Assembly: GCA_964483115.1 (NCBI GenBank)
Contig: CAYZZF010000001.1
Coordinates: forward strand, 19,907 to 83,906
Length of the DNA stretch: 64,000 bases
Reading direction: 5' to 3'
Source of the DNA: an uncultured Gammaproteobacteria bacterium
Lineage (GTDB): Bacteria > Patescibacteriota > Microgenomatia > Levybacterales > UBA12049
Numbering within the stretch: position 1 is the stretch's first letter; each line of letters opens with the position of its first letter. The notes beneath the pieces were generated by a model that ran no database searches, had not been told where the DNA came from, and saw only the letters and a program-made list of their open reading frames with translations. A program made the translations under genes and the position numbers. Positions 13,332 to 64,000 of this stretch are shown piece by piece.

Positions 13332-15077
13332 ATGAATTTTTTGAAAAAGTATCTAGGACTTCTAGTGGTTATTTTTCTTTCGATACCCTCTATTCTTTCT
13401 CTTTTTCACCCTGGGTTTTTCCCAATGCATGATGATACGCAAGTGGCGAGAGTTTTTGAGATAGGGAAGGCACTAAGAGATGGAATGTTTCCCGTGCGCT
13501 GGGTTGCAGATCTTGGATATGGATATGGTTACCCAATTTTTAATTTTTATGCACCGCTTGCTTATTATTTTGGAGGACTTCTAAGTATTTTAGGGTTTAA
13601 CGCACTTACCTCAACGAAAATTATGATGGGAACAGGAATTCTACTTTCAGGTATTTTTATGTATTTTTTTGCTCAGGAATTGTTTGGGAAGCTTGGAGGA
13701 GTAGTTTCAGGGTTATTTTATGTTTATGCGCCATATCATGCTGTTGATGTTTATGTTAGGGGCGATGTTGCGGAATTCTGGGCATACGCATTTATACCTT
13801 TAATGTTTCTTGGATTCTACAAATTAATCTCAAATCTTCCGCCTCGCAGCCAGACGAGTAAATCTAAAAACTTGAGATGGGTAATTGTTGGAGCGATTGG
13901 ATTTGCGGGAATTGTTCTATCTCATAATTTAACAGCTATGATGATAATACCATTTTTAATAATTATTCTATTATTCTATTGCTTCGTCGCTTTTAGAAAC
14001 AAGAACCTATTTACTATTTACTATTTACTATTTACTATTTTTTTGGGTTTACTTTTGTCTGCCTTTTATTGGTTACCTGCTCTTTTTGAAATGAAATCTA
14101 CAAATGTACTATCTCAAATTGGAGGAGGGGCAAATTTTCGAGATCACTTTGTTTGTTGGCAGCAGCTTTGGAGCTCTCCTTGGGGTTTTGGAGGTTCAAC
14201 CTCAGGGTGTATTGATGGAATATCTTTTATGGTTGGTAAATTATATATACTTATGTCTACAGCCGCAATTGTCTTAGCAACTTCTTTAATAAATAAAAAT
14301 TTAATCAGAAAAAAAGATAATAGCAAGATATTTTTTATTTTATTTTCAATTTTTGGACTGCTCGTTTCAGTATTCTTGACACTTGAAATATCTAAACCTG
14401 TTTGGGAGTTAATTTTCCCTATGGCATTTTTGCAATACCCATGGAGATTTCTTCTATTTACTTCGTTTTTTACTTCAGTTCTTGCCGGAGCGCTTTTCTG
14501 GTTTTTACGAATTTTATTTTATAAGTTTAGGCACTTTAATACTATATATTATTTAAGCGCAGTAATTGTGATCTTAGCTCTTATTTACCTTAACGCAAAA
14601 CTTTTTATACCACAAATAATTATTAACAAAAATAACAATGATTACACAAATAATGTTGCTCTCAAGTGGATCGCCTCAAAAATATCCGATGAGTATATGC
14701 CAAAAAACTTTAATAAACCTAAATCAGAAAACCAGATTGTAAATAACAAAATATTACCCGCAGAATCTAGTGTAAAAATTTTATACGGCGTTCAAGATAC
14801 TAAAAGTTTACAAGCTTTTATCGATGTTCCTAAAGATACAAAAGTTAAGATAAACACCGCCTTTTTTCCCGCATGGACTGCTTTTGTAGATGGTAAAAAA
14901 GCTGAGCTGTATGCAACAAATCAAGGAGTGAACATTTTTATGTCTTCGGGAAAACATACATTTAATATGGAGTTTATAGAAACGCCGATAGAAAAATTGG
15001 CTAATTTTATCTCTCTTACTGGCTTATTTATACTTATTATTGGTATAATTCCTCTAAAGAGAAGCCTATATAAATGA
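13332..15077 (+). CDS. polytopic membrane protein, GT-C-like family A, paralog 2
   Basis: Same N-terminal signature (LFHPGFFPMHDDT...GMFPVRWVADLGYGYGYP). Contains an in-frame (CTATTTA)x4 tract. Confidence 0.5.
   Translation: MNFLKKYLGLLVVIFLSIPSILSLFHPGFFPMHDDTQVARVFEIGKALRDGMFPVRWVADLGYGYGYPIFNFYAPLAYYFGGLLSILGFNALTSTKIMMGTGILLSGIFMYFFAQELFGKLGGVVSGLFYVYAPYHAVDVYVRGDVAEFWAYAFIPLMFLGFYKLISNLPPRSQTSKSKNLRWVIVGAIGFAGIVLSHNLTAMMIIPFLIIILLFYCFVAFRNKNLFTIYYLLFTIFLGLLLSAFYWLPALFEMKSTNVLSQIGGGANFRDHFVCWQQLWSSPWGFGGSTSGCIDGISFMVGKLYILMSTAAIVLATSLINKNLIRKKDNSKIFFILFSIFGLLVSVFLTLEISKPVWELIFPMAFLQYPWRFLLFTSFFTSVLAGALFWFLRILFYKFRHFNTIYYLSAVIVILALIYLNAKLFIPQIIINKNNNDYTNNVALKWIASKISDEYMPKNFNKPKSENQIVNNKILPAESSVKILYGVQDTKSLQAFIDVPKDTKVKINTAFFPAWTAFVDGKKAELYATNQGVNIFMSSGKHTFNMEFIETPIEKLANFISLTGLFILIIGIIPLKRSLYK
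14007..14041 (+). repeat. (CTATTTA)x4 perfect plus one variant unit, in-frame in the family-A gene at 13332
   Basis: Read directly: ctattta x4 then ctatttt. Encodes LFTIYYLLFTIF. Confidence 0.95.
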
Positions 15078-24233: not shown

Positions 24234-26558
24234 TTGGTAGTTATGAAGAAAAAATTACCGTATTTTTTAATTATAACAATTTCTATTTTATTTTTCTGGC
24301 AATTTATCTTTAAGGAGTTCTTACCTATTCCTTCGGACACCATTGTTGGACTTTATCATCCTTTTCGTGACTTTTACGCAAAAGATTATCCAAGAGGCAT
24401 TCCGTTTAAGAATTATTTAATTACAGATCCCGTAAGAGAACAGTATCCGTGGAGATATTTAACCATTAATATTGAAAAAAAAATTAATTTGCCGTTATGG
24501 AATCCATATAATTTTGCAGGAACACCGCTTCTTGCCAATTATCAATCTGGCGCATTTTATCCCTTAAATATACTGTTCTTCTTTATGTCATTTTATAAAG
24601 CATGGAGTATTCTTATATTTTTTGAGCCTCTTTTGGCAGGATTTTTTTTGTATCTCTATCTTGATAATTTAAGATTAAATAAATGGGCAAGCTTTTTTGG
24701 ATCGTTATCCTTGATGTTTTCTGGTTTTTTTGTTGCCTGGATGGAATGGGGAACTGTAATTAATACCGTACTGTGGTTGCCACTTATATTGCTATCGATA
24801 GATAAAATATTTAAAAATCAACAGATCTTAAATTTAAAATCTCAGATCTCAAAACTACAACTTAAATCTCAAAATCTAATAACTTGGAGTTTAATTTTCA
24901 TTTTTTCAATTAGTTCTTCTTTTTTGGCTGGGCATCTTCAAATTTTCTTTTACCTTTTTATTGTCACAACGCTATATATTCTTGCTCGGTGGTTGCAGCT
25001 ACAACAAAGAAATTCAAAATTTTTACTTATATTCTTAGTTTCTTATATTTTATTTTTTATATTGACTTCAATTCAATGGATTCCAACTTTTCAATTTATC
25101 CTTCGTTCAGCGCGAAATGTTGATCAGCTACCTTTCCAGAATTCTGGATGGTTTATTCCTTGGCAAAACCTTATTCAGTTTATTGCCCCTGATTTTTTTG
25201 GAAACCCTACGACTCTTAATTATTGGGGAATTTGGAACTATGGGGAATTCGTTGGCTATATAGGTATCTTACCTATTATTATGGCTCTATTTTCTTTATT
25301 TTTTCGTCATGATAGAAAAACTTTGTTTTTTGGAAGTATATTTTTTCTGTCTCTTATCTTTTCTCTTCCGACGATCTTTGCGAATCTTCCATTTTTACTT
25401 CAAATCCCCTTTATTGATACTGCACAGCCGACCAGACTCTTATTTATAACAGATTTTTCTCTTGCCGTTCTTGCGGCTTTTGGTTTTGATTATTTTCTAA
25501 GGACAAAAAGCAAAAAAGAGATCTTATATCCTTTAGGTTTTATAGCAATCTTTTTTTCACTTTTATGGGTCTTTGTTCTATTTGGAGTTTATATAACAAG
25601 GCTGGTTTCGCAAGAGAATTTATTTGTTGCAAAACACAATCTCATTTTACCTACAAGTATATTTTTGATGCTAAGCCTATTTATTTTCATATTGTCGTTT
25701 CTTAAAAAGCTCAGTAAAAATGTCATTCTAATAGTGTATATTATCATAGTGGGCTTGACTGTTTTCGATTTATTGAGATTTAGTTTTAAGTTTACCCCAT
25801 TTATAAAAAGACAATATCTTTTTCCAACTACAAAGACGCTTTCTTTTCTTGAAAAACAAAAAGGGAATTTTAGGATTATGACAACAGACTCAAAAATCCT
25901 GCCGCCCAATTTTTCTATTATGTACAATTTACAAAGTATTGATGGTTACGATCCTTTATATCTTAAAAGATATGCAGAACTTATTGCCGCATTAGAGAGA
26001 GGACGGCCCGATATAGCTCCACCTTTTGGATTTAACAGAATTATTACGCCGCATAATTATTCATCAAAAATTATAGATCTTTTAGGAGTGAAATATATAT
26101 TAAGTCTTTCTGATATTTCCTCAAGTAGCCTTGTTAAAATTTTTCAAGAAGGTCAGACAAAAGTCTATAAAAATTTAAACGCTTTACCCCGGTCATTCTT
26201 CGTTAATCAAGTTAGGTTAACAAAGAATAAGAATGAAACAATAGAAGAAATGTTTAGAAAAGATTTTGATCCGTTAGAAACAGCAATAGTCGAAAATTTC
26301 CAAAGTGTCCTATCTATTCCATTTCTAGGGTGGAATAGGGGGAAGGCAGAAATTACTAATTATTCTGAAAATGAAATTATAATTAGAACAGAAAATAAAG
26401 GTGAAGGGTTCTTGGTTTTAGTTGATAGTTATTATCCTACATGGCATGCATTTATCGATGGAAAAGAGACAAAAATTTTTTTAACTGACTATAATTTTAG
26501 AGGCATAATTGTTCCAGAAGGGAAACATCAGGTTGTTTTTTATAATTCATTATTATGA
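24234..26558 (+). CDS. yfhO: YfhO-family GT-C membrane glycosyltransferase (paralog)
   Basis: EQYPWRYLT...LPLWNPYNFAGTPLLANYQSGAFYP. TTG start at 24234, or ATG at 24243. Contains a degenerate heptamer tract. Confidence 0.7.
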   Translation: MVVMKKKLPYFLIITISILFFWQFIFKEFLPIPSDTIVGLYHPFRDFYAKDYPRGIPFKNYLITDPVREQYPWRYLTINIEKKINLPLWNPYNFAGTPLLANYQSGAFYPLNILFFFMSFYKAWSILIFFEPLLAGFFLYLYLDNLRLNKWASFFGSLSLMFSGFFVAWMEWGTVINTVLWLPLILLSIDKIFKNQQILNLKSQISKLQLKSQNLITWSLIFIFSISSSFLAGHLQIFFYLFIVTTLYILARWLQLQQRNSKFLLIFLVSYILFFILTSIQWIPTFQFILRSARNVDQLPFQNSGWFIPWQNLIQFIAPDFFGNPTTLNYWGIWNYGEFVGYIGILPIIMALFSLFFRHDRKTLFFGSIFFLSLIFSLPTIFANLPFLLQIPFIDTAQPTRLLFITDFSLAVLAAFGFDYFLRTKSKKEILYPLGFIAIFFSLLWVFVLFGVYITRLVSQENLFVAKHNLILPTSIFLMLSLFIFILSFLKKLSKNVILIVYIIIVGLTVFDLLRFSFKFTPFIKRQYLFPTTKTLSFLEKQKGNFRIMTTDSKILPPNFSIMYNLQSIDGYDPLYLKRYAELIAALERGRPDIAPPFGFNRIITPHNYSSKIIDLLGVKYILSLSDISSSSLVKIFQEGQTKVYKNLNALPRSFFVNQVRLTKNKNETIEEMFRKDFDPLETAIVENFQSVLSIPFLGWNRGKAEITNYSENEIIIRTENKGEGFLVLVDSYYPTWHAFIDGKETKIFLTDYNFRGIIVPEGKHQVVFYNSLL
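24827..24878 (+). repeat. degenerate 7-nt periodic tract (cttaaat ttaaaat ctcagat ctcaaaa ctacaac ttaaatc tcaaaat) in the YfhO gene at 24234
   Basis: Read directly: 7-nt periodicity of [ct]t[ca]aaat-like units. Encodes LNLKSQISKLQLKSQN. Confidence 0.7.
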
Positions 26559-27502
26559 ACGTAAGCATTATTATTCCAAATTATAATGGAGAAAAGCTTT
26601 TAAAGAAAAATTTGCCGGAGGTTTTTAAAGCAGCAGTTAATTATAAAAATGGGGAAGTAGAAATTATTTTTGTTGACGATGGCTCCATTGATAAAAGTAC
26701 AACTTTTATCAAATCTCAAATCTCAAAACTCAAGACTCAAAACTTCGAATTGAAACTTCTTAAAAACCAGAAAAATCTTGGGTTTTCATCGACGGTAAAT
26801 CATGGGGCAAGAGAAGCAAAAGGAGATATTTTGGTTTTGCTGAATACAGATGTTATTCCGGAGAAAAATTTCCTGGAGCCATTGATAGAGCATTTTAAAG
26901 ATAATGATGTATTTGCGGTTGGGTGCATGGATAAAAGTGTTGAGGACAATCAAGTCATTTTAAGAGGTAGAGGTATTGGAAAATGGCAAAGAGGATTTTT
27001 GGTTCATGAAAGGGGGGAGGTTAATAAAAACAATACTCTTTGGGTAAGTGGCGGGAGCGGAGCTTTTAGAAAATCAATTTGGGATAAGCTTTCTGGGCTT
27101 AATGAGCTTTATAATCCATTTTACTACGAAGATATTGATTTATCCTACAGGGCTCTTAAGTCAGGATATAAATTATTGTTTGAACCCGACAGCGTAGCTT
27201 TGCACGAACATCAAAAAGGTATAATAAGAAGAAAATATTCAAACTTTAAAGTAAAGACAATTGCATATAAAAATCAATTTATTTTTGTTTGGGAGAATGC
27301 TACAGATATTGATATTCAATTTTTACATTTTTTATGGTTACCATACCATTTTATTAAGGCTGTTATAAGATTAGATTGGGCCTTTTTTCTTGGTTTTTTT
27401 GAAGCTTTTATTTTACTGCCGAAGGTTATAAAATTTAGTTTTAAGGCGCAAAAATTATTTATTAAATCAGATAAGGAAGTGGTGAAAGAATTTGAAAAAT
27501 GA
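26555..27502 (+). CDS. GT2 glycosyltransferase
   Basis: VSIIIPNYNGEKLL, FVDDGSIDKS and LLNTDVIPE. Has a heptamer tract inserted between DDGS and the NLGFS motif. Confidence 0.7.
   Translation: MNVSIIIPNYNGEKLLKKNLPEVFKAAVNYKNGEVEIIFVDDGSIDKSTTFIKSQISKLKTQNFELKLLKNQKNLGFSSTVNHGAREAKGDILVLLNTDVIPEKNFLEPLIEHFKDNDVFAVGCMDKSVEDNQVILRGRGIGKWQRGFLVHERGEVNKNNTLWVSGGSGAFRKSIWDKLSGLNELYNPFYYEDIDLSYRALKSGYKLLFEPDSVALHEHQKGIIRRKYSNFKVKTIAYKNQFIFVWENATDIDIQFLHFLWLPYHFIKAVIRLDWAFFLGFFEAFILLPKVIKFSFKAQKLFIKSDKEVVKEFEK
26709..26743 (+). repeat. (TCAAATC)x2 plus three variant units, in-frame in the GT2 gene at 26555
   Basis: tcaaatc tcaaatc tcaaaac tcaagac tcaaaac. Confidence 0.85.
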
Positions 27503-28215
27503 AATTATCAATTATAATGCCTGTTTTTAATGAGGAGAAAACAATACGAGATATTCTTGGAAAAGTGGTTGCTGTAGATATCCAAGGTGTTAGCAAAGAA
27601 ATTATTGTTGTTGATGACGGATCGACTGATGCTAGCGCATCTCAAATCTCAAATCTCAAATCTCAAAACTTAAATTTTAAATTTATACAACATAAAAAAA
27701 ATATGGGGAAAGGAGCAGCTGTTAGGGCAGGAATTGAAAATTCGACAGGGGATTATATCATAATTCAAGATGCGGATTTGGAATATGAGCCAAATGATAT
27801 AAAAAAACTTATTGCGCCAGTTCAAAAGGGCCAAGCACAGGTTGTATATGGGACAAGACTTAATCGCCTGCCGAATTTTACAAGAGATGAGAGAACCTTT
27901 CTTTTTCTGCTGCACTATCTTGGTAACAGATTCTTAAGTCTTGTAACAAGCATTTTATACAGACAGTGGATTACCGATATGGAAACCTGCTATAAACTTT
28001 TTCCCAAAAAAGCTTTAGAGAAAGTAAAACTTAATTCTAGAAGATTTGATTTTGAACCGGAAATCACTTCTAAGTTACTTAAGAAAGAGTATAAAATTTT
28101 AGAAGTACCAATCGTAACTAAACCTAGGGGATACGATGAAGGGAAAAAACTTCACACAATAAGGGATGGATCTATAGCTTTATGGACATTAATAAAATAC
28201 AGATTTATCGATTAA
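27499..28215 (+). CDS. GT2 polyprenyl-phosphate sugar synthase (DPM1/GtrB-like)
   Basis: LSIIMPVFNEE, VVDDGSTDAS and IQDADLEYEP. Has an (ATCTCAA)x4 tract after DDGSTDAS. Confidence 0.7.
   Translation: MKLSIIMPVFNEEKTIRDILGKVVAVDIQGVSKEIIVVDDGSTDASASQISNLKSQNLNFKFIQHKKNMGKGAAVRAGIENSTGDYIIIQDADLEYEPNDIKKLIAPVQKGQAQVVYGTRLNRLPNFTRDERTFLFLLHYLGNRFLSLVTSILYRQWITDMETCYKLFPKKALEKVKLNSRRFDFEPEITSKLLKKEYKILEVPIVTKPRGYDEGKKLHTIRDGSIALWTLIKYRFID
27639..27685 (+). repeat. (ATCTCAA)x4 perfect plus degenerate units, in-frame in the GT2 gene at 27499
   Basis: atctcaa x4 then aacttaa attttaa. Encodes SQISNLKSQNLNFK. Confidence 0.95.
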
Positions 28216-34616: not shown

Positions 34617-36302
34617 GTGAAGAGAACTAATTTTATCTTAATTTTTATTATTATAGTAGCCGCTTTTTTACGCTTTTATCAACTTGGGACAAATCCTCCT
34701 TCATTGACCTGGGATGAAGTGGCCTGGGGATATAATGCTTACTCTTTGGGACTTGATGGGAAAGATGAATTTGACAGATTTTTACCCGTTGATTATTTAG
34801 AGTCATTTGGGGATTTTAAGCCTCCTGTTTATGCATATCTAGATGTCATTCCGATAAAATTATTTGGACTCACCACCTTTGCGGTGAGATTCCCCTCTGC
34901 TTTTTTTGGCGTTCTTACGGTTTTACTAACTTATTTTTTGGTAAAAAGAATATTCTATAATTCAAAAAATAAAGAACTTTATGCTTTATTCTCCACTTTT
35001 ATTCTTGCAATATCTCCTTGGCATATTTTGCTCTCTCGTGCGGCATTTGAGGCAAACGTTGCATCATTTTTCATCGTAATGGGCATGTTTCTTTTTTTCA
35101 AGGCAATATCTCAAGGTGTAGCCTCTATATCACCTCGGAGGTGGGGTTATATTTACACCTTAGGATTTTTTCTTATCTTGTCTGTTATCTCTTTTATTCT
35201 TTCTATGTATACTTTTAGCACCGCAAGAATTATTGCTCCTCTTTTAATTATAATTTTAGCAGTAGGTTTTAGAAAAGAGCTTCTTTCGCGAAAAAAAGAA
35301 ATAGCTCTTGCAATTATTCTCGGATTTTTTTTGCTATTGCCACTTATAAATTTTTTATTTACACCAGCTGCAAGTCTTAGGTTTAGAGAGGTAAATATTT
35401 TTTCCGATATAGCTGTTATTGAGAATACAAATCAGGAAATTACCAATGATAATGATGCTATTTGGTCAAAAGTAATTCACAATAGACGCTTTGCTTATGC
35501 TGTATCTTATTTCAGACATTATTTTGATAATTTAAGTCCAAGCTTTCTTTTTATAAAAGGAGATGGAAATCCTAAGTTTTCAACTCAAACAGTTGGAGAA
35601 ATGTACTTATGGGATTTGCCATTTTTCATTGTTGGTGTTTTTCTGCTTATTAAAAGAAAAGAAGGCAATTGGTGGATTATTCCCGCTTGGCTTATCTTAG
35701 GAATAATTCCTGCCGCGACTGCTCGTGAAACCCCCCATGCTTTAAGAATCGAAGCAACACTTCCGACTTTCCAAACCATAACCGCAATTGGAGTAAGTTC
35801 GTTTATAATCTGGATAAAGAATCTAAGACTAAAAAAATATTTTAAATCTTTAATTGTCATTTTTATATTTTCATTTTTAATTTTTAATTTTGTATATTTT
35901 TATCATGATTATTTTGCGCATTATTCAAGAATTTATTCGGGAGAATGGCAGTATGGATACAGAGATTCAATTGAGTATGTAAAAAGCGTTCAAAATCAAT
36001 ATGACGAAATCCGCATTACAAATAAATTGGGAAGACCATATATATATTATCTATTTTATACAAATACAAACCCTAAGATATTTAGAAAAACTGCACAAAT
36101 TAAAAGAGATTCTTTTGGATTTGTGACCATCCGCGGATTTTCTAAATATCGTTTTTCGGACAGTCTTTTGTCAATAAAAGATAAAGCAAGGAGAGTCCTT
36201 TATATCGATATTCCAGCAAGAGTTCCAAAAAAAGTAGAGATTTTGAAATCGTTTTACTTACTTAACGGAGAGAAAATGCTGGTTGCCTATAGAGAAAATT
36301 GA
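34617..36302 (+). CDS. GT-C membrane glycosyltransferase (ArnT/PMT_2-like), first of three tandem paralogs
   Basis: GTNPPSLTWDEVAWGYNAYSL...DEFDRFLPV...FKPPVYAYL. GTG start. Confidence 0.6.
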   Translation: MKRTNFILIFIIIVAAFLRFYQLGTNPPSLTWDEVAWGYNAYSLGLDGKDEFDRFLPVDYLESFGDFKPPVYAYLDVIPIKLFGLTTFAVRFPSAFFGVLTVLLTYFLVKRIFYNSKNKELYALFSTFILAISPWHILLSRAAFEANVASFFIVMGMFLFFKAISQGVASISPRRWGYIYTLGFFLILSVISFILSMYTFSTARIIAPLLIIILAVGFRKELLSRKKEIALAIILGFFLLLPLINFLFTPAASLRFREVNIFSDIAVIENTNQEITNDNDAIWSKVIHNRRFAYAVSYFRHYFDNLSPSFLFIKGDGNPKFSTQTVGEMYLWDLPFFIVGVFLLIKRKEGNWWIIPAWLILGIIPAATARETPHALRIEATLPTFQTITAIGVSSFIIWIKNLRLKKYFKSLIVIFIFSFLIFNFVYFYHDYFAHYSRIYSGEWQYGYRDSIEYVKSVQNQYDEIRITNKLGRPYIYYLFYTNTNPKIFRKTAQIKRDSFGFVTIRGFSKYRFSDSLLSIKDKARRVLYIDIPARVPKKVEILKSFYLLNGEKMLVAYREN

Positions 36303-38026
36303 TGTTTGGGTTGAAAATGAATAAAAAAATTGTTTATCTTTGTCTTTTTTTGATTATTATTACTGCCTCAATATTAAGATTATGGCAGTTAGGAAATGTT
36401 CCGCCTTCTCCAGATTGGGATGAGGCTGCTCTTGGGTATAATGCATATTCGATTTTACATACAGGCCGCGACGAGTATGGAAAGTTATTGCCGATTGTAC
36501 TTAGGTCATTTGATGATTATAAGCCTGCTTTATATGCATATTTAGTCATTCCATTTATCAAAATAATTGGTCTAAATGTAGTCGCGGTAAGATTACCTTC
36601 AGTAATCTTTGGCATACTGACTGTTATTGCAACATATTTCTTGGTTAAAGAATTACTCGGCGAAAAACTCAAAGCTCAAAATGCAAATCTCAAAATTGTA
36701 ACTCAAAACTCAAAAGTTGAACCACTTGCTCTTTTAACAGCGTTTTTACTTGCAATTTCTCCCTGGCACATCCAATTTTCAAGAATTGCGTTCGAATCAA
36801 ATGTTGGTCTTGCATTTAATGTTTTCTTTGTATTTTTCTTTCTCAAAGGTCTTAAAAAACCATGGTTGCTTATTTTATCTGCTTTCTTTATGGGAATAAA
36901 TATATATGTCTATCAGAGTGAAAAAGTTTTTACCCCGCTTTTACTTTTAGCGCTTGTCGTGATATTTAGAAAAGAGCTTTTTTCTATTCCTAAAAAATAT
37001 ATTATTTATGCAGTAGTTATTGGTATTTTGGTGTTTTTACCAATGGCAGGATATATCATTAGCAACAAAAACGTTTTTGAAAGAGCGCAAGGAGTCAGTA
37101 TCTTTGCAGAGTCCTCACAGCTTTTGGAAGAAAATTCTAAAAAACTTCTTGTTGATAGGCAAAACAATGATTTCTTAGGTCTCATACTAGATAACCGCCG
37201 TATCGTTTTTGCCAAAGAGATTATATCAGGATATGTTTCGCACTTTAATCTTAATTGGCTTTTTATAACTGGTGATATTGCAAGGCATCATGCTCCTAAT
37301 ATGGGACTTTTGTATCTTTTCGAATTACCATTCTTGTTTGTTGGTATCTATGAGTTGATTTTTGGTAAGTTTGATAAAAAAATAAAGTTTTTAATATTTT
37401 CGTGGTTTCTTATTGCACCTATACCAGCGTCAATTACAAGTGGAGTGCCTCATGCGGTTAGGTCCCTCAATTTTCTTCCCATGTTCCAAATATTTATAGC
37501 ATTAGGAATAGTTAGCAGTATTGCTTTAATTTCAAATTTTAAATTTAAAATTTTAAATTTTAAAATATGGAAACTATTTGCTATTTGCTATTTGCTATTT
37601 GCTATTTTTAATTTTTTATATTATTTAGACCAATATTTTGTTCAGCTTAATTATTTTAACTCAAAAGATTGGCAGTATGGCTATAAACAAACAATAGATA
37701 CCGTTAAGCAGATAGAAGTAAAATATAAAAAAATTATTGTATCTAACCAGCCATATTTAGATCAGTCTTATATGTTTTTTCTCTTTTACTTAAAATACCC
37801 ACCCGAATTGTATCAGAAAGAATCAAAATTTGCTTCTGGGGGTTTTAGAGAAAATCATAAATTTGGAAAATTTGAATTTAGGCCATTTAATTTTGAAAAT
37901 GAAAAAGAAACAGAAGTTTTGTATATAGGAAGACCGCTTGATTTTCCGCAAAATGACTTAGGACAAGTAAAAACCATAAATTTTTTAGATGGAACTCCGG
38001 CAATAAAAATGGTTGAAAGATTATGA
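36299..38026 (+). CDS. GT-C membrane glycosyltransferase (ArnT/PMT_2-like), second tandem paralog
   Basis: GNVPPSPDWDEAALGYNAYSIL...DEYGKLLPI...YKPALYAYL. Carries a degenerate heptamer tract plus (AAATTTT)x4 and (CTATTTG)x4 tracts. Confidence 0.6.
   Translation: MMFGLKMNKKIVYLCLFLIIITASILRLWQLGNVPPSPDWDEAALGYNAYSILHTGRDEYGKLLPIVLRSFDDYKPALYAYLVIPFIKIIGLNVVAVRLPSVIFGILTVIATYFLVKELLGEKLKAQNANLKIVTQNSKVEPLALLTAFLLAISPWHIQFSRIAFESNVGLAFNVFFVFFFLKGLKKPWLLILSAFFMGINIYVYQSEKVFTPLLLLALVVIFRKELFSIPKKYIIYAVVIGILVFLPMAGYIISNKNVFERAQGVSIFAESSQLLEENSKKLLVDRQNNDFLGLILDNRRIVFAKEIISGYVSHFNLNWLFITGDIARHHAPNMGLLYLFELPFLFVGIYELIFGKFDKKIKFLIFSWFLIAPIPASITSGVPHAVRSLNFLPMFQIFIALGIVSSIALISNFKFKILNFKIWKLFAICYLLFAIFNFLYYLDQYFVQLNYFNSKDWQYGYKQTIDTVKQIEVKYKKIIVSNQPYLDQSYMFFLFYLKYPPELYQKESKFASGGFRENHKFGKFEFRPFNFENEKETEVLYIGRPLDFPQNDLGQVKTINFLDGTPAIKMVERL
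36665..36714 (+). repeat. degenerate 7-nt periodic tract (aaactca aagctca aaatgca aatctca aaattgt aactcaa aactcaa) in the GT-C gene at 36299
   Basis: Read directly. Confidence 0.75.
37534..37608 (+). repeat. two adjacent heptamer tracts, (AAATTT[T/A])x4 then (CTATTTG)x4 plus one variant unit, in-frame in the GT-C gene at 36299
   Basis: aaatttt aaattta aaatttt aaatttt ... ctatttg x4 ctatttt. Encodes FKILNFKIWKLFAICYLLFAIF. Confidence 0.9.
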
Positions 38027-39714
38027 GAAATCTTAAGATTCTTTTTCTTTTAAGTATTATTCTTTTGGCCGTATTCTTACGTTTTTATAAATTAAATACC
38101 GTTCCACCGAGTGCCTCTTTAGACGAGGCAAGCATTGGTTTTAATGCTTACTCAATTCTTCAAACAGGAGAGGATGAGTACGGATATAAATTTCCCATTC
38201 TTCTCAGAGCTTACGATGATTGGCGCCCTGCGCTTTACGTTTATCTTGTCATTCCATTTGTAAAAATTTTTGGTCTTGATGCTATATCGGTGCGCTTACC
38301 TTCGGTGATTCTTTCAGTTCTAACTATTTTAGCAACTTATTTTTTGGTAAAAAAACTTTTTAAACTCAAAACTCAAAACTCAAAACTCAAAAATACAATT
38401 CAAAATTCAAAAGAATCAGAAATTAGTAGTTTGAGATTAGAAATTTTAGCTTTGCTTTCAATAGGATTGTTCGCGATATCCCCATTGAGTGTATATATTT
38501 CAAGACTTGGCCACGAAGCAAATCTAGGACTATTTTTTGTTGTTTTTGGAATTTTATTTTTTCTGCTTTCGCAAAGAAAAAAAACGTTTCTTATTCTTTC
38601 TGCAATTTTTTTTGCTCTATCTTTATATTCATATCAGAGTGAAAAAATATTTGCCCCGCTTATAGTTATTGCTCTGGGTATTATATACAGAAAAGAGCTT
38701 TATAAGATAAAAAAAACTCTTTTACTATCTATTGTTATAGGATTATTAATTTCGATTCCAATTTTAGCTGCTTCTTTTTCTCCGCAAGCGCTTATTAGAT
38801 TTAAAGGAACCAGCGCATTTGATGCTTCTAATCCTTTATATAGTCAAAGCGCAAAACGTCTTCTTATAAGTCGGCAGAAGAGCGATATTATTGGTGAGGT
38901 TCTAAACAATAGACGAATAACAAGCGTATATATTTTTATTTCCCAATATTTTTCAAATTTTAATCCGCAATGGATTTTTGAGAATCGTGGAAACGAATCA
39001 TTTAAAGCGCCAGGAGTTGGACTTTTATATTTTTGGGAGGCTCCGTTTCTTTTGGTTGGGATATTTTCCCTTTTCAAAAATAAATATTCATCAAAGACAA
39101 AAGCTGTTGTCGCTTCTTGGGCTCTAATAGCTTTTGTTGCTCCTTCTATAACAACTCAAGCCCCTCATGCTATGAGATCTTACAATGTATTGCCAATACC
39201 TCAGATTTTGATTGGCCTTGGGATCCTTGAAATGGGTAAATTCTTCCCTAAAAAGCTTGGAATTATTTTGCTTGCCATTTTAGTGGTTTCTCAACTTTAC
39301 TACTTCTTTAATCAATATTTTTTTGTTTTTCCAAGAACGGAATCATCTTCATTTCAATATGCTTTATCAAATGTAATGCCTTATGTTTCTAGAGTCAAAA
39401 ATAAATATAAAACTGTTGTAATTTCAAATAGGGATAACTTATACCAATCTTATATGTTTTATCTTTTTTATACTAGATATAAGCCAACATTGTATTTAGG
39501 AAACGGAGGTACTGTATCTGGCGGATTTGCTCAAACGCATAAAATTGACAATCTTTTGTTTAAGCCCATTTCTTTTAAAGATAATGCAATAGAAGGGAAA
39601 ACCCTTTATGTAGGTAATCCTTCGGATTTTCCAAAATCCGAAGCTAGTCTTCTTATGTTTGAAAACCTTGATGGAAAACCTGCCGTAGAAGTGGTATCAA
39701 AAAATGAAAATTAA
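38023..39714 (+). CDS. GT-C membrane glycosyltransferase (ArnT/PMT_2-like), third tandem paralog
   Basis: NTVPPSASLDEASIGFNAYSIL...DEYGYKFPI...WRPALYVYL. Carries an (AAACTCA)x4 tract. Confidence 0.6.
   Translation: MRNLKILFLLSIILLAVFLRFYKLNTVPPSASLDEASIGFNAYSILQTGEDEYGYKFPILLRAYDDWRPALYVYLVIPFVKIFGLDAISVRLPSVILSVLTILATYFLVKKLFKLKTQNSKLKNTIQNSKESEISSLRLEILALLSIGLFAISPLSVYISRLGHEANLGLFFVVFGILFFLLSQRKKTFLILSAIFFALSLYSYQSEKIFAPLIVIALGIIYRKELYKIKKTLLLSIVIGLLISIPILAASFSPQALIRFKGTSAFDASNPLYSQSAKRLLISRQKSDIIGEVLNNRRITSVYIFISQYFSNFNPQWIFENRGNESFKAPGVGLLYFWEAPFLLVGIFSLFKNKYSSKTKAVVASWALIAFVAPSITTQAPHAMRSYNVLPIPQILIGLGILEMGKFFPKKLGIILLAILVVSQLYYFFNQYFFVFPRTESSSFQYALSNVMPYVSRVKNKYKTVVISNRDNLYQSYMFYLFYTRYKPTLYLGNGGTVSGGFAQTHKIDNLLFKPISFKDNAIEGKTLYVGNPSDFPKSEASLLMFENLDGKPAVEVVSKNEN
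38362..38410 (+). repeat. (AAACTCA)x4 perfect plus three degenerate units, in-frame in the GT-C gene at 38023
   Basis: aaactca x4 then aaaatac aattcaa aattcaa. Encodes KLKTQNSKLKNTIQNSK. Confidence 0.95.
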
Positions 39715-41351: not shown

Positions 41352-42179
41352 ATGAGAGAAACTCTGTCTGTTGTCTTGGCAACATACAACGAGGAAGGAA
41401 ATCTGAAAAAATGCCTTGATTCTGCCAAAGATTTAGCCGATGAAATTATTGTAGTTGATGGATTTTCAACTGATAGGACGGTTGAGATAGCAAAAAATTA
41501 TGGTGCTAGGATAAAGGTAACAACAAATAAGCCTAACTTTCATATCAATAAACAAATGGCAATTGATATGGCAATTTGCGATTGGATTCTTCAGCTTGAC
41601 GCGGACGAACGAGTTACACCGGAACTTAAAGAGGAAATACTAAAAATATTGACTTATGACTTAGGACCTAAGACTGAAGACCTAAGCCATAAATCAGAAG
41701 TCGTAAGCCCGAATGGTTATTGGATGCCAAGAAAAAATTGGTTCTTAGGAAGATTTCTTATGAAAGGCGGGCAATATCCGGATTACACCTTAAGACTTTA
41801 TAGAAGAGGTAAAGGAAGACTCCCGCAAAAAGATGTTCACGAGCAAGCAGAGGTTGAAGGAAAAGTTGGTTATCTTAAAAATGCTCTCTTGCATTACCCA
41901 TATAAAAATTTTTCGCACTACCTTTCTAAATGGGGTAATTATAATGATTTTTTCGCTCCGCAGATAAGGGAAGAGCAGAAAAACAAAAATATTATTCAAA
42001 AAATTTTTTATGGGTTAGGGTATATTTTTGTAAAACCGATTTATTGGTTCTTGATTACATATGTAAGACATAAAGGTTTTATAGATAGCTGGCAGGGTTT
42101 TGTTTTTTCTCTTTTCTCTTCCCTCAGATTTCCTGTATCATATATTAAGTATTTAGGACTGAGGACGATAAGACAATGA
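41352..42179 (+). CDS. GT2 glycosyltransferase (WaaE/KdtX-like subgroup)
   Basis: LSVVLATYNEEGNLKKCLDSAKDLADEIIVVDGFSTDRT. Confidence 0.65.
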   Translation: MRETLSVVLATYNEEGNLKKCLDSAKDLADEIIVVDGFSTDRTVEIAKNYGARIKVTTNKPNFHINKQMAIDMAICDWILQLDADERVTPELKEEILKILTYDLGPKTEDLSHKSEVVSPNGYWMPRKNWFLGRFLMKGGQYPDYTLRLYRRGKGRLPQKDVHEQAEVEGKVGYLKNALLHYPYKNFSHYLSKWGNYNDFFAPQIREEQKNKNIIQKIFYGLGYIFVKPIYWFLITYVRHKGFIDSWQGFVFSLFSSLRFPVSYIKYLGLRTIRQ

Positions 42180-42523
42180 GAAACAGATTTGAGGAACTTG
42201 ACGTTTATAAAAAGGCGCATCTTTTAGTTCTTAAAATTTACAAAATAACTGAAAAATTTCCTAAGTCAGAAATATTGGGTTTAATAAGTCAAATAAGAAG
42301 AGCATCTATATCTGTAGTCGCGAATATAATGAAAGGAAACACAAGAAGCTATAAAAAAGAATTTATTAAGTTTTTATATCTTTCTAGGGGTTTGTTATAA
42401 GAAGTTAAATATTACTTTATTCTTGGATTAAATTTAAAGTATATTAGCAAAAATGATTGCGATAAGCTTTAAGAAAAATCAGAAAAAGTTGGTAAAATGT
42501 TATCAGGTTTAATAAAATATTGA
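42176..42523 (+). pseudogene. four-helix-bundle protein (23S rRNA intervening-sequence protein family) with two in-frame TAA nonsense codons
   Basis: FPKSEILGLISQIRRASISVVANI...FLYLSRG matches the family core. The frame continues in phase through TAA (42398-42400) and TAA (42470-42472) to a TGA at 42521, restoring the expected length of about 115 aa (…EVKYYFILGLNLKYI…KMLSGLIKY). Confidence 0.5.
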
Positions 42524-43552: not shown

Positions 43553-43862
43553 AAATGAGACATTATTATTAAACAAGCTAATTCTACGAGATATGTTTTT
43601 CAAACATATCTTAAGAGTATATGGTTATATTATTAACATAGTATATTTTTTTGGTTGGTATGCTATTGTAGATAATAGGCCCTCATTGTTAGAGCCTACA
43701 AAAAATGGGTTAATTAAACTGACTGTTTTAAGAGGGAAATATAATATCGAAGTTAAATTTGTAAAAACTCCTGTCAGAAAATTTTCAGATACGGTTTCTT
43801 TATTATCATTCTTAATACTTTTAATAATTCTTGTAAAAGCTGTATATTTAAAACAGGTATGA
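43542..43862 (+). pseudogene. orphan C-terminal fragment of a family-A GT-C membrane protein
   Basis: YFFGWYAIVDNRPSLLEPTKNGLIKLTVLRGKYNIEVKFVKTPVRKF...LLIILVKAVYLKQV aligns with the last 90 aa of the CDS at 11649 (YFPGWKSTIDGNPSNIEYTNDRGVIDLSVPKGEHKIKLKFSETPLRLL...ITLKAVYIHRV). The upstream 450 aa are absent. Confidence 0.45.
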
Positions 43863-44917
43863 ATATAGCAATAGATATCTCGCCCCTTAAGAGCGGACAT
43901 TTTTTACAACACAGAGTTAGAGGAACAGGTTTTTATATAGATAATTTAAAAAGATCATTAATGAAATATTTTCCAGACAATAAATACACTTTTTTTACTC
44001 GAGGAGAAAAACTGTCCAAAGATATAGACTTAGTTCACTATCCTTATTTTGAGCCATTTTTTTTGACACTTCCTCTAGTTAAAAATCGCAAATCAGCTAT
44101 TACAATTCATGATTTGACTCCTCTTGTTTTTTCAAATGCTTTTCCAAGAGGAATAAGAGGAGAAATTAAATGGCAAATTCAAAAAAAACTTTTGGAAAGA
44201 GCAGATGTAATTATTACAGATTCAGAATGTTCAAAAAAAGACATTACTAGGTATACTGGTATACCTGACAAAAAAATTAATGTCGTTTATCTTGCAGCAG
44301 GAGAACAGTTTAAAAGAATCAAGAATCAAGAATCAAGAATCAGGGATCTGAAAACAAAATATGGATTGCCTGAAAGGTTCGTACTCTATGTAGGCGATGT
44401 TACCTGGAATAAAAATCTGCCAAGGCTGATCGAAGCGATAAAAAAGATTAATGCTACTTTGGTTATGACTGGCAGGACTTTAGCAAGTAAAGATTTTGAC
44501 CGCAATAATCCTTGGAACCAAGATCTAGTTCGGGTTCAAGAATTGGCAAAAGACGATAAAAGAATTATCCGCTTGGATTTTGTTCCGACAGGAGATTTAG
44601 TCTTTCTCTACAATATGGCCACTGTCTTTGCAATGCCCAGCTTATATGAGGGGTTTGGCTTGCCGATTCTCGAGGCTATGAGCTGCGGTTGCCCTGTTGT
44701 AACATCAAAAGAGGGTTCTTTGGAAGAAATTGCAAAAGATGCAGCTTTTTATGTAGATGCATATAATGTCGAAAGCATTGCAAAAGGGATTAAACAATTA
44801 TTTGCAAGCGACAGCCTGAGAAGAGAATTTTCAAAAAAAGGACTGGAACAGGCGAAAAAATTTTCATGGAAAAAAACAGCAGAAGATACTTTAAAAGTAT
44901 ATAAGAAAGTATTGTAA
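43859..44917 (+). CDS. GT4 (GT-B fold) glycosyltransferase
   Basis: EGFGLPILEAMSCGCPVVTSKEGSLEEI. Carries an (AAGAATC)x4 tract. Confidence 0.7.
   Translation: MNIAIDISPLKSGHFLQHRVRGTGFYIDNLKRSLMKYFPDNKYTFFTRGEKLSKDIDLVHYPYFEPFFLTLPLVKNRKSAITIHDLTPLVFSNAFPRGIRGEIKWQIQKKLLERADVIITDSECSKKDITRYTGIPDKKINVVYLAAGEQFKRIKNQESRIRDLKTKYGLPERFVLYVGDVTWNKNLPRLIEAIKKINATLVMTGRTLASKDFDRNNPWNQDLVRVQELAKDDKRIIRLDFVPTGDLVFLYNMATVFAMPSLYEGFGLPILEAMSCGCPVVTSKEGSLEEIAKDAAFYVDAYNVESIAKGIKQLFASDSLRREFSKKGLEQAKKFSWKKTAEDTLKVYKKVL
44314..44341 (+). repeat. (AAGAATC)x4 perfect, in-frame in the GT4 gene at 43859
   Basis: aagaatc x4. Encodes KNQESRIRD. Confidence 0.95.
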
Positions 44918-62131: not shown

Positions 62132-64000
62132 ATTATTTCTATTTGTATTTATTTTATTAACGCTAACAGTTTTTAAAAATTGGTTTTTTTTAAATCCCCT
62201 TTCTTCGGGTGACTGGAGTTATAACTTCAGCGAGTCTATAAAAACTTTTACAATTTTTCCTTACTCTTGGTTTTTTAACTTAAATGCAGGACTTGGGGGC
62301 ACAAGCCTTTTTATTTTGTCTTTGAGTTCTTATTTTTTATTTACAACATCTTTTTTGTTTAATTTTTTCAAAATTCCCTGGGTTTTAATAGAAAGATTGG
62401 TCTGGTTTTGGCCGTTTTTATTAATTTCTGCTTTCTCCTCTTATTTTTTGTTTAAAAAATTATTTTCTGAAAAGTTCGCATTACTCTCATCTTTTATTTT
62501 TCTTTTTAACTCCTACATCTTAATGATCGTCGGAGGCGGGCAAATGGGTGTAGCATTTGCTTATGCCATGGCTCCGCTAGTTTTATATGTTTTTATTAAA
62601 ACCATTGATTTTTTTAATTTTTCAAAAAATAATATTCAATTTTCAATTTTCAATTTTCAATTACCTTTACTTTCAGGGTTATTATTTTCAATTCTGGTTT
62701 TGTTTGATTTAAGGATTGCGTATATATGCATAACTTCCGTAATGCTGTATTTGGTATTAAATATAAAGTATAAAGTATCAAAAAATAACTTTTTGCGTAT
62801 CTTAAATTTAATTTCTTATTCTTTGATAATTCCGGCGGTAATTACATTTCTTTTGAATTCTTTTTGGATAATTCCGTTGATAGCAGGCGGGAAAAATCCA
62901 CTTGTAGAACTAGGCAGTGTTTACAGCTCTTTAGAGTCGGTTAAATTTTTCAGTTTTGCTAAATTTGAGAATTCTATCGGACTTCTGCATCCAAATTGGC
63001 CGGAGAATATTTTCGGAAAAGTCGGTTTTATGAGACCTGAGTTTCTATTTCTACCAGTACTTGCTTATGCAAGTCTGTTTTTTGCAGCAAAGATTAAAGA
63101 TTCAAGATTAAAGACTTATGTTATTTATTTTGCGTTATTAGGGTTAATCGGAGCTTTTTTGGCAAAAGGGGTAAACGAACCTTTTGGCAGAATATACCTT
63201 TGGCTTTTTAATCATTTCACGGGATTTGTGATGTTTAGGGACCCGACTAAGTGGTACACGCTAGTTGCAGTTTCATATTCAGTTTTAATTCCATTCACTG
63301 TATGGAAGTCTTATGAGTGGTTGAAGTCGCAATCAAAATTTCAAATCTCAAATTTCAAATTTCAAATAAGGTCCAAATCTCAAATTCTCAATTTTCAAAA
63401 CTTATTTTTTTTGCTTGTTACCGGTTACTTGTTGTTCTTAATTAGACCGGCATTTTTTGGTCAATTAACAGGCACATTTAAGCCCCATGAAATTCCAAAG
63501 GATTATATAAGGCTTGAAGAATTTTTAAGCAGTAAAAAAGACTTCTTCAGAATCCTTTGGGTTCCAGAGTGGCAGCGGTTCGGTTTTTTTTCCAATAACC
63601 ACCCGGCAATAGGAGGAGGGGAGATTTTTAAGAAAGATGCAGAAAATCAGATAAAACAGCTTAAACAAAAAGGTACAGAAGGCTTGCTTGAAGATCTGTC
63701 AGTCAAGTATATTATTATTCCTTATGATTCGGAGAAAGAGATATTTCTAAGAGACAGAAAGTATGATGATAAATTGTATGAGAAGAGCATAACTGAAACT
63801 AGGAAAATTAAATGGCTCAGGGAGATTGACGGCTTTGGAAAAATCAAAGTTTTTGAAGTCCCAAATCCCAAAGATCATTTTTGGAGCCCCTCGACTAACC
63901 TTCAAGTTAAATACAGGTATGTTAATCCGACGAAATATGAAGTTTATGTAAAAAATGCAAAAAAGGGAGACTTATTAGTATTCTCGGAGGGTTTTGATAA
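62115..64000 (+). CDS. polytopic GT-C-like membrane protein, 3' end outside the window
   Basis: The frame is open from a GTG at 62115 (VKNYFKLFLFVFILL...) to the window edge (more than 628 codons, no stop) and is not in the ORF track. It has multiple TM helices followed by a hydrophilic C-terminal region, and carries two degenerate heptamer tracts. Confidence 0.5.
   Translation, partial: MKNYFKLFLFVFILLTLTVFKNWFFLNPLSSGDWSYNFSESIKTFTIFPYSWFFNLNAGLGGTSLFILSLSSYFLFTTSFLFNFFKIPWVLIERLVWFWPFLLISAFSSYFLFKKLFSEKFALLSSFIFLFNSYILMIVGGGQMGVAFAYAMAPLVLYVFIKTIDFFNFSKNNIQFSIFNFQLPLLSGLLFSILVLFDLRIAYICITSVMLYLVLNIKYKVSKNNFLRILNLISYSLIIPAVITFLLNSFWIIPLIAGGKNPLVELGSVYSSLESVKFFSFAKFENSIGLLHPNWPENIFGKVGFMRPEFLFLPVLAYASLFFAAKIKDSRLKTYVIYFALLGLIGAFLAKGVNEPFGRIYLWLFNHFTGFVMFRDPTKWYTLVAVSYSVLIPFTVWKSYEWLKSQSKFQISNFKFQIRSKSQILNFQNLFFLLVTGYLLFLIRPAFFGQLTGTFKPHEIPKDYIRLEEFLSSKKDFFRILWVPEWQRFGFFSNNHPAIGGGEIFKKDAENQIKQLKQKGTEGLLEDLSVKYIIIPYDSEKEIFLRDRKYDDKLYEKSITETRKIKWLREIDGFGKIKVFEVPNPKDHFWSPSTNLQVKYRYVNPTKYEVYVKNAKKGDLLVFSEGFD
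62636..62663 (+). repeat. (TCAATTT)x3 plus one variant unit, in-frame in the terminal GT-C-like gene
   Basis: tcaattt tcaattt tcaattt tcaatta. Confidence 0.9.
63341..63400 (+). repeat. degenerate (TCAAAT[C/T])n tract (tcaaatc tcaaatt tcaaatt tcaaata ... aaatctc aaattct caatttt) in the terminal GT-C-like gene
   Basis: Read directly. Encodes KFQISNFKFQIRSKSQILNFQN. Confidence 0.8.

Follow-up and report, generated by a model that had tools for sequence, protein, structure and literature searches.

An in-register heptanucleotide array within a GT4 glycosyltransferase gene of a Levybacteria bacterium: a slippage-prone coding repeat and potential ON/OFF switch

We analyzed a stretch of 64,000 nucleotides (contig CAYZZF010000001.1 of assembly GCA_964483115.1, positions 19,907 to 83,906 of the forward strand; the whole stretch is referred to as the window) from a Levybacteria bacterium of the candidate phyla radiation (CPR). 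A GT4 glycosyltransferase gene in this window contains a perfect 7-base tract, (AAGAATC)x4, in the middle of its coding sequence; the organism names attached to the homologs of this gene are Levybacteria, Microgenomates or Patescibacteria. The tract is genuine and beyond chance. As judged from sequence comparison, it is the local version of an old five-slot array common to Levybacteria and Microgenomates orthologs, and its description as a slippage-active coding microsatellite is well supported. That the tract also yields biologically meaningful low-rate ON/OFF variation of the GT4 enzyme is, in our judgement, an evenly balanced proposition.

The tract, its host gene and its history

Bases 44314-44341 read as exactly four copies of AAGAATC, in agreement with an earlier sequence-only reading of this DNA. 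Tandem Repeats Finder placed the tract at 44314-44342 with a period of 7, 4.1 copies and 100% matches, and our own exact scan concurred. The encoded peptide, (K)RIKNQESRI(R), contains the KNQESRI that had been named as the product of the unit. The elements of the gene are as follows.

43859-44917, + strand: GT4 (GT-B fold) glycosyltransferase open reading frame (ORF), 352 amino acids (aa), presently in frame (ON)
43985-44290, + strand: N-terminal Rossmann-like domain, Pfam Glyco_transf_4, aa 43-144, the sole domain kept by a frameshifted product
44314-44342, + strand: perfect heptanucleotide tract (AAGAATC)x4.1, GT4 codons 152-162, K-R-I-K-N-Q-E-S-R-I-R (Tandem Repeats Finder and exact scan)
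44314-44348, + strand: five-slot heptamer array, four perfect units and a degenerate fifth, AGGGATC (44342-44348)
44349-44351, + strand: TGA stop codon met after -1 or +2 units (161 or 168 aa)
44369-44842, + strand: C-terminal Rossmann-like domain, Pfam Glycos_transf_1, aa 171-328, gone after a slip of +-1 or +-2 units
44371-44373, + strand: TGA stop codon met after +1 or -2 units (173 or 166 aa)

Against 100 dinucleotide-preserving shuffles of the window, which has a G+C content of 32.7%, perfect period-7 tracts of at least four copies numbered seven versus 0.0, and period-7 tracts of at least 2.5 copies numbered 12 versus an expected 0.1. Periods of 4-6 and 8-12 were at expectation in the same comparison, and the excess was confined to period 7. 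The antisense strand of the AAGAATC unit presents TGA in every frame, so that within an ORF the tract can persist only in the sense orientation.

The assignment of the gene at 43859 to the GT4/GT-B enzymes, which had been read from the letters alone, was borne out by three kinds of evidence. Both Pfam domains were recognized (E = 8e-11 for Glyco_transf_4 and 4e-31 for Glycos_transf_1), the C-terminal domain carries an EX7E motif (E264-GFGLPIL-E272) that is invariant among 25 homologs, and the nearest solved structures were GT4/GT-B enzymes, namely GlgM (6tvp, 9e-17), MshA (3c4q, 2e-15) and sucrose-phosphate synthases (2r60). Domain content, motif and sequence similarity to solved enzymes agree on a retaining glycosyltransferase of this class. 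The top non-identical homolog had 69% identity, and all NCBIfam equivalog scores for the protein were far under their cut-offs. An AlphaFold2 model (mean predicted local distance difference test, pLDDT, 87.8; predicted template-modelling score 0.87) showed beta/alpha alternation in two halves. In this model the tract forms a coil (residues 143-157) and the beginning of a helix (158-168) with a pLDDT of ~89-90, just ahead of the first strand of the C-terminal domain (175-178).

The same sequence-only reading took the repeat to be an insert and an independent unit type, and neither description survived comparison with homologs. The tract aligned with a segment of equal length in 24 homologs, which excluded an insertion, and the linker between YLAA and LYVGD measured 26-27 aa in 91 of 105 homologs. 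It was exactly 7 aa shorter in four of the 105, and a clean +7 aa linker occurred in none of them. We then turned to DNA from ~45 orthologs of other species, 30 of which entered a unit table in which the region was cut into five 7-nt slots from one common alignment column. Orthologs of other Levybacteria and Microgenomates bore heptanucleotide tracts at identical codons, made of other units (L numbers denote loci).

L017, orthologous site: (AAAATGG)x4.4
L035, orthologous site: (GAAATTG)x5.4
L029, orthologous site: (AAGAATT), ~4.5 copies
L015, L008, L036, L010 and L006, orthologous site: degenerate arrays
L016, L020, L023, L039 and L042, orthologous site: array relics

Across the 30 orthologs the unit consensus was xAxAxTx, conserved in register, and self-identity at lag 7 was 0.52 as compared with 0.27-0.38 at lags 5, 6, 8 and 9. 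Units within one genome were more alike (identity 0.517) than units occupying the same slot in different genomes (0.404), a pattern that indicates concerted evolution, and a 14-nt super-period in L008 and L010 pointed to two-unit duplications. In evolutionary terms, the AAGAATC unit is therefore the local form of a five-slot array held in register across orthologs. Among more distant CPR GT4 genes, tracts lay at or beside the linker in Roizmanbacteria L073, (AAACTCA)x4.6, and in Patescibacteria L046, while the AAGAATC tracts of three unrelated GT4 genes (L156, L102 and L097) lay at other surface sites. Whatever its function, an in-register array that is homogenised lineage by lineage offers a natural case of coding-microsatellite concerted evolution over deep divergence.

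Turnover of the units was also visible in the proteins. When 342 segments of eleven residues were compared among 120 homologs, the five most variable all began at aa 152-156, with an identity of 0.37-0.40 against a protein mean of 0.83 in pairs that were 80-97% identical overall. The hypervariability of this zone was seen as well in pairs at 70-80% and 60-70% overall identity, and different unit families occurred in pairs 87-92% identical outside the linker (LKTDDL versus IQNSEL, for example). Proteins P0005 and P0041 (L208 and L209) were 87% identical outside the linker and differed by 7 aa in length; their DNA differed there by a single exact 21-nt deletion within TAAAAGT TCAAAGT TAAAAGT TAAAAGT, with near-identical flanks. 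The window and its closest relative, L003, were likewise exactly 7 aa apart, and L003 retains 1.9 AAGAATC units. Exact indels of 21 nt, or three units, between close relatives indicate that slippage is active. Changing the unit number in silico by +-1 or +-2 gave products of 161-173 aa, and changing it by +-3 gave 345 or 359 aa. The locus thus shows three features of contingency loci: a non-triplet unit in an ORF, a unit number that switches between full-length and truncated product in silico, and inter-lineage differences in unit number. The claim that the tract is slippage-prone and capable of frameshifting the gene is upheld by the concerted units, the hypervariable zone and the exact three-unit indels; actual ON/OFF switching, or a selective use of it, would go beyond these observations.

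These observations would be accounted for by the following mechanism. Slipped-strand mispairing would add or drop whole 7-nt units in an array inherited at the same GT4 codons across Levybacteria and Microgenomates, and the array would persist because it encodes a surface loop and helix start that tolerate nearly any sequence. Three-unit changes preserve the frame and have become fixed in relatives. In characterised simple sequence repeats (SSRs), one- and two-unit changes are commoner. Here such changes would shift the frame and end translation at 44349-44351 or 44371-44373, and the resulting fragment of 161-173 aa would be without the sugar-nucleotide-binding C-terminal domain. The locus, which is ON in this genome, would be frameshift-prone and in principle reversible, and one would expect a single sugar-transfer step of a cell-surface glycan to vary between ON and OFF at low frequency. 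We infer that +-1 slips would be frequent enough to be useful in a tract of only four units, that cells in the OFF state would survive and revert, and that selection would maintain this property.

Switching weighed against other explanations

We sought OFF alleles and variants in copy number, and the outcome of this search, together with the controls described below, weighs against a switch. None of the ~45 species-level orthologs was frameshifted. The source assembly and two independent Logan assemblies (SRR5161805 and SRR5161795) all had four copies, these being consensus assemblies of one population that carry low power; the Logan assemblies encoded an identical GT4 protein and had the same copy number at the other tracts that they read through. 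The sequence-only reading had held that invariant length, with the segment conserved in homologs, would refute its proposal, and this is largely what we found: the three assemblies agree in copy number and the segment is conserved. No near-identical variants were present in a collection of 15 billion proteins, in which the 90%-identity clusters of the tract-bearing window proteins were all singletons and from which ORF 36299-38026 was absent. Taking CPR loci and window together, 24 of 33 perfect tracts lay in intact long ORFs, and the intragenic tracts, including all seven of the window, comprised no OFF allele. Two of the remaining nine, L006 and L008, were situated at the 3' end of galE and overlapped the stop codon (checked for L008); no OFF allele was shown among the nine, seven of which were not closely examined.

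A search with the N-terminal domain alone for truncated alleles returned mostly contig-end fragments, along with two split orthologs. Neither could be attributed to slippage. The P0129 split (L087) is an in-frame TAA (GAA to TAA, L087 2233-2235) within the linker just upstream of a degenerate array, on a contig with 2x coverage, and could represent either an error of sequencing or a genuine pseudogene; the P0150 split lies upstream of the tract. The number of slots is also almost fixed, as the uniform linker lengths indicate. With 4.1 perfect units in five slots, the tract falls between the neuO minimum of 3 and the PhasomeIt cut-off. That cut-off is 5 or more for longer units, and four perfect units are just under it (PMC6321876).

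A scan of metagenome contigs for three consecutive AAGAATC units served as an unbiased control sample. At least 120 contigs with 27-71% G+C carried (AAGAATC) at three or more copies, mostly 3-5 (loci L088-L207). The results given next hold among the matches listed. No close ortholog of the GT4 gene was present. Fifty-six tracts were in ORFs of at least 100 aa, and AAGAATC occurred in frame in essential genes of other bacteria; the families listed were DNA polymerase I, aminoacyl-tRNA synthetases, pyruvate kinase, ATP synthase, TsaD, Obg, RsmH, EPSP synthase and three GT4s. Since housekeeping genes cannot be on/off switches, a tract by itself does not imply a switch, and this control is a warning against calling every non-triplet coding repeat a contingency locus. 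Tracts were rarer in ORF interiors than random sites (29% versus 51%), and tracts whose ORF would be rescued by +-1 or +-2 units, the candidate OFF alleles, were no commoner than in the control (7/100 versus 22/600). Among 19 tract-bearing CPR ORFs we counted GT4 (4), GT2 (4), PTPS_related (4, which also match PMT_2 and YfhO), epimerase (3) and thymidylate synthase (1). These families mirrored those of 131 random ORFs from the same CPR loci, a comparison with little power because the loci consist nearly entirely of glycan genes. The thymidylate synthase match probably places a heptamer tract in a CPR housekeeping gene at L074. This Patescibacteria locus has (TTTGATA)x4.6 at 7567-7598 in a minus-strand ORF, 6929-7879, the sole scanned ORF able to explain the match.

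Two further properties of the control sample were observed. In G+C-rich genomes AAGAATC occurred in intergenic back-to-back heptamer arrays, for example GGCGAGT x3, CAAGAAT x3 and TACGTTT x4 at L107. Arrays of 9-15 copies were found at L096, L117, L119, L131, L142, L177 and L192.

The breadth of this distribution across contigs and essential genes, the depletion in ORF interiors, the unremarkable number of candidate OFF alleles and the lack of functional enrichment in CPR loci are all in line with a tolerated by-product, whereby slippage favours 7-nt units everywhere, the linker accepts any sequence, and frameshifted variants are loss-of-function mutants purged by selection. So are the facts that every array was seen ON with a near-fixed slot number, and that a heptamer excess with a polymerase-slippage account is already in print (PMC4692102, citing Mrazek 2007). 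We give this explanation a substantial probability, somewhat short of even. It does not readily accommodate the density of period-7 tracts in the window, which at 11 per 100 kb far exceeds the 3 per 100 kb of related CPR loci, nor the finding that 7/7 perfect window tracts are intragenic whereas the general sample is depleted in coding sequence. Arrays are moreover kept at the same sites in orthologs and paralogs of 41-69% identity and are homogeneous within lineages. Persistent homogeneous arrays imply repeated turnover of units, most simply via out-of-frame intermediates, and a neutral tract would be expected to have decayed by now had its units not turned over. If in-frame changes were instead the selected ones, the linker might act as a length rheostat in which +-3 units (7 aa) tune activity or acceptor choice. 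The 7-aa in-frame differences between close relatives and between the window and L003, the four homologs of 105 with a linker exactly 7 aa shorter, and the rise of NeuO activity with the length of its repeat region, as reported in a passage of PMC13001214 citing its reference 36, would fit such tuning. The constancy of the linker at 26-27 aa in most homologs and the lack of a clean +7 variant do not fit, and in the model the segment is predicted to be a short loop, followed by the beginning of a helix, that packs between the two domains, unlike the free N-terminal extension of NeuO. We regard the rheostat as quite improbable.

A role of the DNA or RNA itself, for example as an array of binding sites for a protein, as an internal promoter or as structured RNA, is suggested by the GAATC (GANTC-type) motif repeated four times at 7-nt spacing and by the in-register conservation of the xAxAxTx consensus. 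We consider it very improbable, as the tract has no intrinsic structure (minimum free energy -2.2 kcal/mol, z = +1.6; 193/200 shuffles folded equally well or better) and units differ freely among lineages and among window tracts, unlike a common binding site. An assembly artefact or chance repeat came under consideration in view of the Logan contig breaks at other heptamer tracts, yet three assemblies agree base for base at the GT4 tract, the ORF is unbroken there and shows homology to either side, and the in-register ortholog arrays and the absence of such tracts from shuffles speak against chance. The breaks at 6573 and 27642 are accounted for by a 30-mer that the two TCAAATC tracts share (6573-6602 and 27642-27671, identical, 21 kb apart). 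Its length equals k-1 in both Logan assemblies (k=31), which break there, and the breaks were accordingly rejected as copy-number heterogeneity. The probability of an artefact is in our estimate negligible.

Having weighed these explanations, we regard the GT4 tract as a potential ON/OFF switch that would act at a low rate, comparable to NeuO/pglE, and an adaptive switch as no more than plausible. We tentatively extend this idea, in a form that we think unlikely to hold in full, to a joint claim: Levybacteria and Microgenomates may keep heptanucleotide frameshift switches at fixed codons of their glycosylation super-clusters, maintained by selection for mutability over phylum-scale divergence, with proposed switch sites in the GT4 linker, at ~aa 50 and ~aa 100 of GT2 enzymes, in GT-C membrane enzymes and in the GalE tail. 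If true, no contingency-locus system would have been described in CPR bacteria before this one, which would allow combinatorial surface-glycan variation against phage or for host attachment. CPR/Patescibacteria are generally described as having small genomes and few regulators, and many of them as living attached to other cells. Our literature searches turned up no account of phase variation by SSRs in the CPR bacteria themselves.

The glycosylation cluster and its companion arrays

The GT4 gene has galE on one side and a Wzx-type flippase gene on the other; next come RmlC/RmlD-like genes, a dehydratase gene, additional genes of the GT2 and GT4 families and one for a DegT aminotransferase. This neighborhood had been termed an O-antigen-like sub-cluster. 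CPR bacteria are usually described as being without lipopolysaccharide, and the term is loose; a Wzx-type polysaccharide or glycoconjugate cluster is what the gene content sustains. Positions 3427-64000 form a single glycosylation super-cluster that takes up nearly the whole window, with ~25-30 glycosyltransferase ORFs of the GT2, GT4 and GT-C types (the latter PMT_2, YfhO, PTPS_related, GT87-like and AftD-like), two polysaccharide deacetylases, flippases, GalE, RmlC/RmlD-like genes, a dehydratase and DegT. It probably represents a big fraction of a CPR genome that is likely small. An ORF of 74 aa belonging to the 23S_rRNA_IVP family (42176-42400) sits between a GT2 gene and galE.

The GT4 tract had been presented as one of a window-wide set of heptamers in glycosylation genes, and we found the same, with seven perfect tracts in total. 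Besides the GT4 tract there are 11 period-7 arrays, every one in frame within a glycosylation ORF.

6566-6598, + strand: (TCAAATC)x4.7, right behind the ATG of GT87-like ORF 6563-7753
14007-14040, + strand: (CTATTTA)x4.9, in membrane-protein ORF 13332-15077
26709-26744: imperfect array in the paralogous GT2 ORF 26555-27502, at a position equivalent to the 27639 tract
27639-27667, + strand: (ATCTCAA)x4.1, in GT2 ORF 27499-28215
36664-36715 and 37528-37564: imperfect arrays, both in PMT_2 ORF 36299-38026
37574-37607, + strand: (CTATTTG)x4.9, in PMT_2 ORF 36299-38026
38362-38392, + strand: (AAACTCA)x4.4, in PMT_2 ORF 38023-39714, at a position equivalent to the paralog's 36664 array
62631-62662, + strand: (AATTTTC)x4.6, in a membrane-protein ORF that stays open between 62106 and the end of the window
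63089-63114 and 63336-63367: further arrays in the same membrane-protein ORF (from 62106)

The GT2 paralogs (26555-28215, 41% identity) carry their arrays at equivalent positions (~aa 47-64), as do the PMT_2 paralogs (36299-39714, 46% identity; ~aa 114-139). Shared positions in paralog pairs imply that the arrays are older than the duplications or that they were co-homogenised. The units match the local protein, with hydrophilic units (TCAAATC, AAACTCA) in soluble parts and hydrophobic units (CTATTTG, AATTTTC) in membrane proteins. Logan contigs also end in the CTATTTG and AAACTCA tracts, at 37603 (L084, which terminates exactly 30 nt into its tract) and at 38363 and 38390 (ends of L001/L002 and L083). 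These three ends may stem from a longer allele among the reads or from a k-mer that recurs elsewhere in the genome.

Recurrent array sites were seen in other species as well. Heptamer tracts lay at ~aa 214-233 of membrane-protein ORFs of ~550 aa (L004 4993, L005 7864, L007 8908 and L035 8993, as at 14007 in the window), at ~aa 95-107 of ORFs of ~260 aa (L007 621, L014 5138, L015 8439 and L048 3802), and at the extreme 3' end of galE (L006 6669, L008 6705 and L014 6666), where the L008 tract overlaps the stop codon as well as the beginning of the following gene. Per-family Pfam counts, rather than assignment of each ORF, suggest that these three groups would correspond to PTPS_related, GT2 and GalE, respectively. 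Outside long ORFs, four arrays of ATACTTC, ATACTTA and CTTCATA units abut or overlap one another in 120 nt of L041 (18900-19017). Heptamer clusters also occur in Anaerolineae/Chloroflexi loci with distant GT4 relatives, at L052 6522-7521 (four in 1 kb), L065 6163-6756 and L082 780-911.

Comparison with known heptamer repeats and phase-variable glycan genes

Published bacterial heptamer repeats resemble those of the window in that their length and sequence vary between close relatives and the excess is specific to period 7. The published cases are mostly intergenic, whereas the arrays here are intragenic, in frame and at conserved codon positions. Chromosomes among the homolog matches measure ~0.6-0.9 Mb, which marks a lineage with small genomes; heptamer repeats were reportedly linked to large genomes by Mrazek in 2007. 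Polymerase slippage has been proposed as the origin of the over-representation of heptamers in bacteria, including cyanobacterial and Xanthomonas repeats (PMC4692102, citing Mrazek 2007).

The GT4 case stands apart from its precedents by a short, near-fixed slot number, a mid-gene linker position, deep in-register conservation and the fact that no OFF allele was found. The closest likeness is to neuO, the polysialic acid O-acetyltransferase gene of phage CUS-3 in E. coli K1. The neuO gene has a heptanucleotide variable number tandem repeat, AAGACTC, of 3-53 copies, is ON only at copy numbers that are multiples of 3, and was in the OFF state in 65.6% of complete genomes (PMC13001214). In both genes a 7-nt unit lies within the coding sequence of an enzyme that modifies a surface glycan, the unit is stop-free and hydrophilic in all three frames, and full-length protein arises from one copy-number class modulo 3. 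The neuO unit itself resembles AAGAATC as well as the units of AAGACTT type found in L006, L016 and L042. The two differ in that neuO carries its repeat in the 5' region with strain-variable copies and frequent OFF states, whereas the GT4 gene has 4-5 near-fixed slots mid-gene and no OFF allele was seen; neuO also encodes an acetyltransferase in E. coli K1, as opposed to a GT4 glycosyltransferase in an environmental CPR bacterium.

The pglE gene of Neisseria, a protein-glycosylation galactosyltransferase gene, is comparable by description, as a surface-glycan glycosyltransferase gene with an intragenic heptanucleotide repeat. Its phase variation is governed by that repeat, and it is one of several phase-variable genes in its pathway (PMC7157529). 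Switching of pglE is documented by experiment and carriage isolates and its repeat number is variable, in contrast to the GT4 gene, for which only interspecies 3-unit indels are documented. The lipooligosaccharide and capsule loci of H. influenzae (tetranucleotide repeats) and C. jejuni (poly-G) differ in unit length, in tracts well over validated thresholds, in a usual location near the 5' end and in frequent OFF states. They share with the window the presence of non-triplet SSRs in glycosyltransferase ORFs, several per glycan cluster, an arrangement that would give combinatorial surface variation. If the arrays of the window do switch, ~ten such genes in one 64-kb cluster could give hundreds of glycan phasotypes.

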